In this document: positions 15,345-19,230 of the stretch, one piece after another
How the letters are laid out: each line of letters opens with the position of its first letter
How positions within the stretch are numbered: position 1 is the stretch's first letter
DNA from: a virus
Lineage: Duplodnaviria; Heunggongvirae; Uroviricota; Caudoviricetes
Virus record (IMG/VR): IMGVR_UViG_2721755728_000002
Reading direction: 5' to 3' (one strand)
Length of the DNA stretch: 55,396 bases
Notes under the pieces: model-generated
Told to the model about the DNA's origin: nothing
Database searches by the model: none
What the model saw: only the letters and a program-made list of their open reading frames with translations
Program-made: the position numbers and the translations under genes

Positions 15345-15710
15345 ATGACTGAACGCATAGAATTTGTTTTGCCTTACCCGCCAACGGTGAACACTTACTG
15401 GCGTCGTCGTGGCAGCACATATTTTGTATCAAAAGCCGGGGAGCGTTATCGCCGGGCAGTGGCGCTTATTGTTCGCCAGCAGCGGCTGAAATTAAGCCTG
15501 TCCGGAAGGTTGGCAATAAAAATTATTGCAGAACCACCGGATAAGCGCCGCCGTGACCTGGACAATATCCTGAAAGCACCACTGGATGCGTTGACGCATG
15601 CCGGACTTCTCATAGACGACGAGCAGTTTGATGAAATCAATATTGTGCGCGGTCAGCTCGTTCCTGGTGGGCGGCTGGGCGTGAAGATTTACAAAATTGA
15701 GAGTGAGTGA
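15345..15710 (+). CDS. rusA: Holliday junction resolvase RusA
   Basis: 121 aa, RusA family (LPYPPTVNTYW...DLDNILKAPLDAL). Confidence 0.85.
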   Translation: MTERIEFVLPYPPTVNTYWRRRGSTYFVSKAGERYRRAVALIVRQQRLKLSLSGRLAIKIIAEPPDKRRRDLDNILKAPLDALTHAGLLIDDEQFDEINIVRGQLVPGGRLGVKIYKIESE

Positions 15711-16261
15711 TCGTAAATATGATATACCCGGAAATTACAGGCAAAAGCGGCGAGCATTTACGTCTAAAAACGCTGGAAGCCGTCTGGATCCAGGGGAAAT
15801 TACGGATGTGGGGGCGTTGGTCGTATATAGGTGGTAGCAAAACAGGAAATATGTTCAATCAGTTGCTGGCATCCAAAAAACTGACAAAAACCGCAATCAA
15901 TGAAGCCCTGCGTAGAATCAGGGAGTCAGGGATTGATAAACCAGAGCTGGAAGCATTCTTGCGAGAGATGATCGCTGGCAGACAGAAGAGCTGGTTGTCT
16001 CACTGTACTGATGCAGAGGCGTTACGCATTGATGGGGTGATAAGTAAAGCGCTTGCACGTTATCCTGGATTGATTGATATCCTGCGGCAAAGATACGAAG
16101 GGCGGGGGATGAGTAAACGCAAAATGGCTGAATTGTTGAATGAGGTTCACCCTGAGTGGTGCTATGCAACATGCCGCAATCGTATAGATATGTGGCTGAG
16201 AATAGCTGAGTTTATTCTGTATCCACTGATGCGAGATGCATTTTCTTTTACTGACGCTTAG
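15707..16261 (+). CDS. Putative late-gene antiterminator (Q-like), family uncertain
   Basis: 184 aa after rusA, followed by a terminator-containing leader; assignment by position. Confidence 0.4.
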   Translation: MIVNMIYPEITGKSGEHLRLKTLEAVWIQGKLRMWGRWSYIGGSKTGNMFNQLLASKKLTKTAINEALRRIRESGIDKPELEAFLREMIAGRQKSWLSHCTDAEALRIDGVISKALARYPGLIDILRQRYEGRGMSKRKMAELLNEVHPEWCYATCRNRIDMWLRIAEFILYPLMRDAFSFTDA

Positions 16262-16921: not shown

Positions 16922-17971
16922 ATGATTAATACTGTAAAAATATCCAGTTGTGAGTTAATCAACGCTGATTGCCTGGAATTTATCCAGACCTTACCGGAAA
17001 ACTCTGTCGATCTGATAGTCACAGACCCGCCATACTTTAAAGTGAAGCCCGAGGGCTGGGATAACCAGTGGGAGGGCGACGATGATTACCTGAAATGGCT
17101 GGACCAGTGTCTGGCGCAGTTCTGGCGGGTACTGAAGCCTGCCGGAAGTCTTTACCTGTTCTGTGGTCATCGCCTGGCATCTGACACCGAAATCATGATG
17201 CGTGAGCGCTTTAATGTGCTGAACCACATTATCTGGGCGAAGCCGTCCGGACGCTGGAACGGGTGCAATAAGGAAAGTCTGCGGGCGTATTTTCCGGCAA
17301 CAGAGCGCATTCTGTTTGCAGAACATTATCAGGGACCGTATCGCCCGAAAGATGATGGCTATGTGGAGCAGGGGCGCGAGCTAAAACAGCACGTCATGGC
17401 CCCGCTGATTTCTTACTTTCGTGATGCGCGTAAATCACTGGGAATAACGTCAAAACAGATAGCGGAAGCCACCGGAAAGAAAAACATGGCTTCGCACTGG
17501 TTTGGTATCAGTCAGTGGCAGTTACCGAACGAGGGTGATTACAACAAATTGCAGGCGTTGTTTGCGCGTGTTGCGGCAGAAAAACATCAGCGCGGGGAAC
17601 TGGAAAAGCCACACCACCAGCTGGTCAGCACATACAGTGAGCTGAACCGGCAGTATACGGAACTGCTGAGTGAATATAAAAATTTGCGGCGGTATTTCGG
17701 TGTGACGGCGCAGGTTCCGTACACCGATGTCTGGACGCATAAACCGGTGCAGTACTATCCAGGGAAACATCCGTGCGAAAAACCGGCAGAAATGCTGCAG
17801 CAGATAATCAACGCGAGCAGTCGTCCGGGAGACCTGGTTGCAGATTTTTTTATGGGTTCAGGTTCAACGGTAAAAGCGGCGATGGCACTGGGGCGTTGTG
17901 CGATTGGTGTTGAGCTGGAGACCGGACGCTTTGAACAGACAGTCAGGGAAGTTCAGGATTTAATCGTTTGA
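16922..17971 (+). CDS. DNA methyltransferase (N6-adenine/N4-cytosine family, beta class)
   Basis: 349 aa; motif IV DPPY (IVTDPPYF) near N-terminus and motif I FFMGSGST near C-terminus; no adjacent restriction endonuclease. Confidence 0.85.
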   Translation: MINTVKISSCELINADCLEFIQTLPENSVDLIVTDPPYFKVKPEGWDNQWEGDDDYLKWLDQCLAQFWRVLKPAGSLYLFCGHRLASDTEIMMRERFNVLNHIIWAKPSGRWNGCNKESLRAYFPATERILFAEHYQGPYRPKDDGYVEQGRELKQHVMAPLISYFRDARKSLGITSKQIAEATGKKNMASHWFGISQWQLPNEGDYNKLQALFARVAAEKHQRGELEKPHHQLVSTYSELNRQYTELLSEYKNLRRYFGVTAQVPYTDVWTHKPVQYYPGKHPCEKPAEMLQQIINASSRPGDLVADFFMGSGSTVKAAMALGRCAIGVELETGRFEQTVREVQDLIV

Positions 17972-18196: not shown

Positions 18197-18273
18197 GCGT
18201 TGTTAGCTCAGCCGGACAGAGCAATTGCCTTCTAAGCAATCGGTCAGTGGTTCGACTCCACTACAACGCGCCA
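18197..18273 (+). tRNA. tRNA-Arg (UCU anticodon)
   Basis: 77 nt; acceptor GCGTTGT/ACAACGC plus GCCA; anticodon stem-loop ATTGC-CTTCTAA-GCAAT; GGTTCGACTCC T-arm. Confidence 0.8.
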
Positions 18274-18442
18274 CACTTATTTTCCAGGCTCGCTTCGGCG
18301 GGCCTTTTTTGTATCTGCGCCACGCCCGGCGCATATCAACCACAGAGCCTTTCGGGGGTGAGCTTACGGAGTGGTCAGTGTGACTTTCTCTGTGGGCAGA
18401 TCGCTCCCGGGCGTTGGCTCACCCACCCAAAGGAACGTCACG

Positions 18443-18874
18443 ATGTTTGGAATCTTCAAAAAGAAAACCCGCAGAGCGGCAGCGGAAATTAAAAAGTTTG
18501 AGAAACGCGATCTGGCACAGGCGGTGATTAACGCTGCATACCTGGTGGCCTATGCAGATGGTGAATGCGAGGCATCCGAGAAAGCGAAGATCGAACAGGT
18601 CTTACGTAATCAGCCTGCGTTGTCTGCGTTTACCTCGGAAATTAATGCGATTAGCGCAACTATTATCGGTCAGCTGGATACCAATTTTAAAATTGGTCGT
18701 CGTGCCGCGTTACGCGAGATTGAGGATGTGAAACACGATACGCGTGAAGCGGAAGATGTGCTGGATGTGGCGGTGGCCATTGCGGAGGCAGACGGCGAAA
18801 TTGAGCCGGAAGAGCGCAAGGTGCTGGAAGAGATTGCCGGTGTTCTGGGTCTTCGTCTGGAGAATCACCTGTGA
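18443..18874 (+). CDS. TerB-like (tellurite-resistance TerB fold) protein
   Basis: 143 aa from MFGIFKKKTRR; paired acidic helices typical of TerB; AAAGGA RBS. Confidence 0.5.
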   Translation: MFGIFKKKTRRAAAEIKKFEKRDLAQAVINAAYLVAYADGECEASEKAKIEQVLRNQPALSAFTSEINAISATIIGQLDTNFKIGRRAALREIEDVKHDTREAEDVLDVAVAIAEADGEIEPEERKVLEEIAGVLGLRLENHL

Positions 18875-19080
18875 CGGTAAAACTGCGCCTGGCTGTGGCT
18901 GCACTCCTGCTGTTTCTGGTGGTGATGGTGGATTTCACCAGCAGAATCATGTCGGTGCTGGCGGATGGGGTGCTGGTCTGCGGCATTGTGGTATTGCTGT
19001 GGCCGGTGATAAAAAGAAACAGCCTGCATAATGCTTGGTTTTTTTGTTTGCTGTTTATTAAAAACACTTCTGCATGGTGA
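18871..19080 (+). CDS. Small membrane protein coupled to the TerB-like gene
   Basis: 69 aa, two hydrophobic helices; GTGA start/stop overlap. Confidence 0.45.
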   Translation: MTVKLRLAVAALLLFLVVMVDFTSRIMSVLADGVLVCGIVVLLWPVIKRNSLHNAWFFCLLFIKNTSAW

Positions 19081-19205
19081 ATCCCCCTGTGCGGAGGGGC
19101 GATCAGCAACCAGGTATATGGGATAATCGCGGATTTAGGTGCTGATACTGAATTCACCGGGAGGCACCCGGCACCATACAAGAAAAAGAATGTGCATGCA
19201 AACAT

Positions 19206-19230
19206 GCCCCTCTCCGGAGGGGCTTTTTTA
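19206..19230 (+). terminator. Rho-independent terminator
   Basis: gcccctc-tccg-gaggggc followed by ttttttat. Confidence 0.55.

Follow-up and report, generated by a model that had tools for sequence, protein, structure and literature searches.

Covariation points to a pseudoknotted leader RNA shared by the tciA–tciB pair of a lambdoid prophage and other phage accessory genes

Introduction

Phage P1 carries three consecutive genes, tciA, tciB and tciC, which lie among phage tRNA genes, after a DNA methyltransferase gene, and whose function has been deduced from their name only. A CRISPR interference screen of P1 found all three to be non-essential (PMC10695390), and papers on P1-like and D6-like phage-plasmids regard the tci genes as morons of the tRNA region whose predicted resistances are still to be tested (PMC9603915, PMC6799933). 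A study of a lytic Pseudomonas phage doubted any tellurite function in view of the absence of the remaining ter genes (PMC8421299). The literature that we searched contained no experiment on the function of phage tciA or tciB, and tellurite or colicin resistance is simply a name that was inherited through homology. Here we analyse a tciA–tciB pair, together with the RNA leader that precedes it, in a window of 55,396 nucleotides (nt), meaning the whole stretch of DNA studied (IMG/VR record IMGVR_UViG_2721755728_000002, Caudoviricetes). The window includes the late region of a lambdoid prophage, and the pair lies between the phage tRNA genes and a nanS-p-type esterase gene.

Compared with phage P1, the window has the same gene order and the same coupling, a TciA that is 42–51% identical and a homologous TciB of the DUF3927 type, and here, too, function is deduced from the name only. 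In contrast to P1, where tciC follows (in P1-type loci an open reading frame (ORF) of 35–36 amino acids (aa) with one membrane segment), the window has no tciC-like ORF and continues with the small RNA (sRNA) STnc100. Moreover, the P1 genes have a different leader without the motif described below and are controlled by the C1-dependent ban promoters, whereas we propose that the window pair belongs to a Q-dependent late operon. TerB of terZABCDE, with the solved structure 2jxu, has the same length class and fold as TciA and similarly repeated acidic ADG...E motifs. However, no other ter gene is adjacent in the window, where the neighbours are tRNA genes, a DNA methylase gene, DUF3927, sRNAs and the esterase gene, and the partner of TciA is a 55-aa hairpin protein and not TerC. 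DjlA and YebE (DUF533) join a TerB-like cytoplasmic domain to transmembrane segments. In the window, by comparison, the membrane and TerB parts are encoded by separate, coupled genes and there is no J domain. With regard to the leader, the closest described systems are those that sequester the Shine-Dalgarno sequence, such as riboswitch platforms and RNA thermometers.

A predicted pseudoknotted leader RNA upstream of tciA

In seven of eight comparisons, the approximately 130 nt between an intrinsic-terminator-like hairpin and the start codon of tciA (Table 1) equal or exceed the coding sequence in conservation. In a second lambdoid allele the leader is 96.9% identical, compared with 63.6% for the coding sequence, and in Klebsiella phage 5 LV-2017, where TciA is only 43% identical, the corresponding values are 83% and 60%. 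Conserved blocks of the leader are still present in Erwinia jumbo phages. Most enterobacterial copies of the leader also keep the terminator in front, including copies that have different upstream genes.

RNAalifold analysis of a first alignment of 17 leaders (A6) predicted two elements that show compensatory changes, the hairpin P1 and the helix P2; P3, the long-range helix 4 and the pseudoknot PK1 were added by inspection. With this structure, 95.7% of the cells in A6 are paired, and double changes are found in 11 pairs as compared to 4.7 ± 1.4 in shuffles. The fold proposed by RNAalifold on its own was rejected: it missed helix 4 and PK1, and its small hairpin at columns 113–124 conflicts with them. 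Matches to a covariance model built from P1, P3 and helix 4 only gave a second alignment (A7; 34 matches, 32 of them distinct), in which 96.2% of the cells are paired and 25 of 39 pairs show double changes, compared with 7.3 ± 1.9 in shuffles (0 of 500) and 2–6 in slid controls. PK1 and P2, which had been left out of the model, covary in A7 as well, and PK1 occurs as CGCCC:GGGCG, CGCUC:GAGCG, UGCCC:GGGCA, CGCAC:GUGCG and CUCAC:GUGAG. Since G–U pairs are tolerated on the plus strand in A7, the structure lies in the sense RNA. At the level of comparative sequence analysis, the strong covariation across five helices, two of them pseudoknotted, demonstrates a conserved pseudoknotted RNA.

Helix 4 pairs the invariant CCUUU (18348–52) with the Shine-Dalgarno sequence AAAGG (18429–33). 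Like the known Shine-Dalgarno-sequestering leaders, the window leader would thus bury its ribosome-binding site in a helix, in this case a covarying one, and likewise has, further upstream, a complex fold with pseudoknots and with conserved stretches that stay unpaired. Unlike riboswitches and RNA thermometers, it matches no Rfam family and precedes unrelated genes. A search of the leader (18317–18442) against Rfam with permissive filters gave no match at E<=1, and an ant-type copy gave only a weak match to P37 on the other strand. An earlier description outside this database may exist. We also considered a 167-aa ORF starting from GTG 18371 as a longer version of tciA; this was rejected because its upstream part corresponds to the leader, with non-triplet indels, and all homologues begin with MFG.

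Table 1. Features of the late region of the prophage, with three leader copies from other records. Positions are those of the window unless a locus is given.
Feature	Position	Strand	Remarks
Q-type antiterminator gene	15707-16261		DUF1133 / Phage_antitermQ
DNA methylase gene	16922-17971		upstream of the tRNA genes
tRNA, CAU anticodon	18021..18096	+	ARAGORN: Met; RefSeq on identical gene: tRNA-Ile
tRNA-Arg(UCU)	18197..18273	+	phage tRNA
Intrinsic-terminator-like hairpin and T-run	18286..18310	+	5' edge of the mobile unit
Leader RNA, ~130 nt	18313..18442	+	conserved, predicted structured; between terminator and tciA start codon
Leader P1	18317-21 / 18328-32	+	hairpin
Leader PK1	P1 loop 18323-27 with 18409-13	+	pseudoknot CGCCC:GGGCG, partner about 85 nt downstream
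Leader P2	18340-47 / 18388-95	+	helix
Leader P3	18373-77 / 18381-85	+	hairpin
Leader helix 4	18348-64 / 18416-33	+	longest helix, long-range
tciA	ATG 18443 to TGA 18874	+	143 aa; AAGGA 8 nt upstream
tciB	GTG 18871 to TGA 19080	+	69 aa; GGAG upstream; GTGA overlap with tciA
STnc100-family sRNA (RF02076)	19043..19235	+	full length, 140.3 bits (gathering 47)
Intrinsic-terminator-like hairpin	19206-19223 plus T-run (terminator 19206-19229)	+	3' end of STnc100
AgvB anti-GcvB sRNA (RF02702)	19236..19297	-	full length, 96.5 bits (gathering 56)
nanS-p-type sialate O-acetylesterase gene (DUF1737+SASA)	19445..21294	+	split into two ORFs in the window
Further leader copy	L012:7913-8057		covariance-model match
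Further leader copy	L003:9441-9581		covariance-model match
Further leader copy (933W)	L393:1501-1641		covariance-model match

Copies of the leader before other genes

The covariance model detects one copy of the leader in the window, with 149 bits, and copies are located upstream of every enterobacterial tciA allele tested. Furthermore, diverged copies precede P22-type ant genes in Shigella phage 75/02 Stx, PPyecE and 933W, where ant sits between R and Rz, and KilA-N genes in P22-like Salmonella phages and a Klebsiella phage. In all four copies that were checked against the annotation (933W ant, SE1Spa, SPLA1b and Klebsiella phage 2b), the match stops at position +6 relative to the start codon. 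A blastn search with an ant-type copy retrieved 317 phage records. A pattern scan of metagenomes yielded mostly chance matches, with 9 of the 80 listed loci being real according to the covariance model. The leader motif was not found in the region upstream of tciA in phage P1. This region (L005:2900–3000) contains a hairpin, CACCGGGAGGCACCCGGCACC, which is nearly identical to one within the STnc100 copy of the window (19156–19183).

Since the leader precedes the unrelated genes tciA, ant and KilA-N, the signal to which it responds is unlikely to be tied to TerB chemistry. That ant and KilA-N share it suggests a general lock for accessory genes which are possibly harmful if mistimed. We therefore put forward, tentatively and with slightly less than even confidence, that the leader represents an undescribed family of double-pseudoknotted phage cis-regulatory RNAs which would gate translation via Shine-Dalgarno pairing and would be common to otherwise unrelated accessory genes (tciA, P22-type ant and KilA-N) of lambdoid, P22-like and jumbo phages, including ant of 933W. 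Candidates for the signal are a ligand, a protein, temperature and the kinetics of transcription, and tciAB would share this lock with other potentially harmful genes of the lytic phase. If real, the leader adds a layer of translational control to a late operon that also carries stx, and it represents a compact candidate for a new class of riboregulators that appears to control ant in Stx phages such as 933W, too.

The TciA and TciB proteins and their distribution

TciA matches the Pfam TerB family (PF05099) over residues 26–138 with an E-value of 2.9e-16 and 60.2 bits (cutoff 24.4), and its residues 14–137 align with the solved Klebsiella TerB structure 2jxu (E 4.4e-8). It is a full-length protein with an all-helical TerB fold, acidic and soluble, with an isoelectric point of 5.1, no hydrophobic segment and a cytoplasmic location. 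The initial annotation had named the lack of a TerB fold as a refutation, and the Pfam match and the alignment with 2jxu speak against such a lack. TciA has a basic N-terminus, MFGIFKKK, which is conserved as MFGxxKKK, and two ADGE...E motifs, and K7, D23, E46, E66, E92, D117 and E124 are invariant across distant homologues. Similarity to DjlA and DUF533 in the profile search was weak and below threshold.

TciB matches DUF3927 (Pfam PF13064; E 1.2e-16, 60.8 bits, cutoff 25) and has two hydrophobic segments, with hydropathy peaks around residues 12–16 and 38–42, which flank a conserved DFTSR. Due to the basic residues at both ends, we infer an N-in/C-in hairpin topology. The family has a length mode of 54–55 aa. 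Codon 19036–19038 is TGA in PPyecE and TGG in the window and in E. coli O26:H11 strain 11368; this loss of the stop codon extends a 55-aa TciB core ending at 19038 to 69 aa, with 14 additional codons reading into STnc100 sequence. The 69-aa TciB is a stop-loss allele of a 55-aa protein.

The initial annotation had described a two-gene unit at this position, encoding a TerB-like protein of 143 aa and a translationally coupled two-helix membrane protein of 69 aa, and each of these elements was recovered here, including the coupling, with the GTG start of tciB lying inside the GTGA overlap with the tciA stop codon. The unit was also not recognised there as a described system, a reading that our data do not support. 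By homology the cassette is the pair to which the names tciA and tciB were given in phage P1, and it has already been annotated and is not novel: the labels tciA and tciB appear in the records of JLK-2012 and PPyecE_EH1910, tciB only in that of phage 434, and RefSeq lists the two proteins in strain 11368 as ‘tellurite resistance TerB family protein’ (WP_000466957.1) and ‘DUF3927 family protein’ (WP_001341379.1). Both proteins also have full-length PHROG matches (TciA, PHROG 632, E 1.7e-69, 1–143/143; TciB, PHROG 1470, E 7.9e-30, 1–54/54). Matches of this strength lie far outside what chance would give. The queried 1-kb stretch is present with 100% identity in strain 11368 and many other enterohaemorrhagic E. 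coli (EHEC) genomes, and 771 of 5426 complete E. coli genomes cover at least 80% of it.

TciA homologues were found in 131 phage records. They include the strictly lytic N4-like phages Pollock and FSL SP-058, in which the genes are among the early or middle genes, the Machinavirus jumbo phages of Erwinia and Salmonella (about 70% identity), as well as Pseudomonas and Vibrio phages. A scan of species-representative genomes yielded 9 loci. Clustering of the TciA proteins from the 254 loci gathered, at 80% identity, resulted in 23 clusters. In 16 of these a DUF3927-type hairpin gene starts −17 to +3 nt from the tciA stop codon, and in another five a different one-segment membrane protein occupies the tciB position; among close relatives tciB was kept in 80 of 80. 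Based on this tally of downstream partners, the conserved unit consists of a TerB protein and a coupled small membrane protein. The alternative partner has 67–73 aa, one N-terminal hydrophobic segment and a conserved two-cysteine tail, CxWYGYQTE...GCMV...PRNELR. It was seen in Pseudomonas phage AF (L007:2432–2653), in whose record it is unannotated, and at the loci L009, L196, L229 and L230, and it has no Pfam match. Genes for tRNAs are adjacent in five of the 23 clusters, all of them enterobacterial. A functional link to tRNA genes, as might be read from the adjacency in P1, lambdoid and jumbo phages, was rejected because of this limited occurrence, and we regard the adjacency as reflecting a shared accessory region and not a mechanism.

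Expression timing and possible functions

Several lines of evidence favour an accessory role of tciAB in the lytic phase over lysogenic conversion. Strictly lytic phages carry the pair, and in phage P1 tciABC form part of the C1-repressed ban operon, behind the C1-controlled Pban promoters, and were induced in P1vir infection (bioRxiv 10.64898/2025.12.28.696737). Moreover, the unit has an upstream terminator, and a consensus scan found no sigma-70-like site on the plus strand near the cassette. A sigma-70 promoter of its own, TTGTAT-17-CATATC, was considered by eye and rejected as weak and not conserved.

Our favoured model, which in our view has an even chance of being right, is that of a mobile moron unit, composed of terminator, leader, tciA and tciB, with a membrane function in the lytic phase. 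We propose that in the prophage the unit, a resident of the late operon in the stxAB slot, is silent, because there is a terminator upstream, a promoter is lacking and the ribosome-binding site is paired. During lytic growth, Q-modified RNA polymerase would read through the terminator, the leader would open and TciA and TciB would be made. TciB might then anchor or receive TciA on the inner membrane, at its cytoplasmic face, so that the two proteins together would correspond to a TerB-like protein tethered to the membrane, such as DjlA or YebE, but divided over two genes. The complex could act on the inner membrane of the infected cell, where sensing or buffering of ions or stress would keep the cell productive until programmed lysis; alternatively, it could exclude competitors. 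This function would be dispensable for plaque formation. The distribution of the pair speaks for a use of phage TerB proteins in the lytic cycle and not in the lysogen, which shifts attention away from tellurite and colicin. The proteins of the cassette are ordinary in the sense that they represent a widespread named pair, for which the prototype P1 offers a tractable genetic system and the lytic phage Pollock could offer another.

A number of observations weigh against this model or parts of it. The independent lineages behind the covariation in the leader are modest in number, the fit of A7 already included three of the five helices, and P2 and helix 4 may either coexist or alternate. In or before the leader there may be a weak or non-sigma-70 promoter. 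Two of the 23 TciA clusters have no membrane partner, and in phage 434 a tciB homologue stands without tciA. ORFs in which TerB and DUF3927 are fused (P0004 and P0066), which we had considered as a Rosetta-stone link between the two proteins, were rejected and are uninformative, since their junctions are frameshifted read-through of the 4-nt overlap and not natural fusions. Finally, the cytoplasmic tails of TciB are very short for docking of TciA, and the soluble part of the alternative one-segment partner would be periplasmic.

The initial annotation had suggested a lysogenic-conversion or exclusion module. Spelled out, tciAB would be expressed in the lysogen and confer superinfection exclusion or resistance to pore-forming colicins or tellurite, either as a small Rex-type pair of soluble sensor and membrane effector or in a Ter-like manner. 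We consider this reading to be probably wrong and, at perhaps one chance in five, unlikely. It would fit the location in a classic moron slot with terminators on both flanks and the retention of the 1-kb stretch in so many E. coli genomes; besides, Ter operons and the defence systems Shango and Bunzi contain TerB domains (PMC10952713), and neighbouring sRNAs such as AgvB act in the lysogen (PMC4104026). However, the other ter genes are absent from the neighbourhood, and authors writing on phage terB and tciAB note that the other ter genes are missing and that tests are still to come (PMC8421299, PMC6799933). No PADLOC defence model was matched: the best hit of TciA was to PDC-S48, with an E-value of 0.0035 over 35 residues, and TciB had none. 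Likewise, the presence of the same pair in strictly lytic phages, the repressor-controlled lytic operon of P1, and the combination of upstream terminator, missing consensus promoter and paired Shine-Dalgarno sequence are difficult to reconcile with expression in the lysogen. Another proposal, which we regard as very improbable, is an anti-defence role: a TerB mimic at the membrane would act as a decoy that disturbs host systems containing TerB domains, such as Ter-mediated phage inhibition, Shango and Bunzi. The occurrence of the pair in many unrelated lytic and temperate phages, its lytic-phase expression and the full-length homology of TciA to cellular TerB would all agree with such a role. 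On the other hand, the proposal is purely inferential, PADLOC revealed no similarity to the TerB proteins of defence systems, and in EHEC hosts, which harbour many copies, a dependence on tciAB is not evident in the data at hand.

The size of TciB and its probable N-in/C-in hairpin layout resemble those of class II holins. The pair could accordingly set the timing of lysis, with TciB as a two-segment holin- or antiholin-like protein and TciA as a cytoplasmic regulator of the time of permeabilisation, and its position just upstream of the lysis genes in lambdoid phages, and directly before the holin gene in phage pPE4, would be in line with this. Nevertheless, in P1, N4-like and jumbo phages a long distance separates the pair from the lysis genes, and it belongs there to the early or tRNA-region genes, and the phages concerned have holins of their own; in the window, too, holin and lysozyme genes are located downstream of the esterase gene, separate from tciAB. 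The strongly charged C-terminus that is typical of holins is missing from TciB, and neither Pfam nor PHROGs gave a holin-family match for it. We regard a role in lysis timing as rather improbable.

The stx slot and its flanking RNAs

Consistent with the earlier claim that the cassette occupies the position of stxA and stxB in Stx-converting phages, the phage tRNA genes lie upstream and nanS-p downstream. In Shigella phage 75/02 Stx, a distance of 95 nt separates the end of stx1B from a stretch homologous to the window from 19058 onward, which is followed by the esterase gene, so that tciAB takes the place of stxAB between the tRNA genes and the esterase gene. The initial annotation had the pair closed by a strong terminator. 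A hairpin with a T-run is indeed present; however, it is part of STnc100, a backbone sRNA common to Stx phages, and not a feature of the cassette. In Stx2 phages, STnc100 has been reported 75 nt downstream of stx2 (PMC12370729). In the window STnc100 converges with AgvB, the characterised anti-GcvB sponge of EHEC prophages (PMC4104026), which has its own terminator at 19261–19242 and an intact CACAACA GcvB-mimic motif. The arrangement 3' of the cassette is the same as that of the prophage sRNAs STnc100/PasD and AgvB/AsxR downstream of stx, and these sRNAs are neighbours from the phage backbone, outside the tciAB unit. Since the 3' flank consists of backbone STnc100 and AgvB, the cassette proper ends at about 19040–19055. 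STnc100 starts 5 nt past the ancestral tciB stop codon and could therefore be an RNA derived from the 3' untranslated region of tciAB, or of stx in Stx phages.

The slot differs in further phages. In the Stx2a phage Stx2_14040 and PPompW prophages (L272:3501–5003), the IS110-family element ISEc20 has inserted ~48 nt into the leader (about window position 18358); tciAB, the esterase gene and the lysis genes are missing at this locus and the terminase genes are directly next. In phage 434 (L002:3138–4370), the solitary tciB homologue lies between two other genes for small or medium-sized membrane proteins, in the same slot before the esterase gene.

With regard to the genes around the cassette, the RefSeq label of the tRNA with CAU anticodon implies that it would be of the ileX type, and the tRNA-Arg gene differs by one base from that of strain 11368 (C against T at 18212). 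The esterase gene lacks one nucleotide of a G-run at 20147, as compared to the intact 1851-nt gene of O26:H11 strain 11368, and is thereby split into ORFs at 19445–20158 and 20131–21294; this represents either a pseudogene or a sequencing error.

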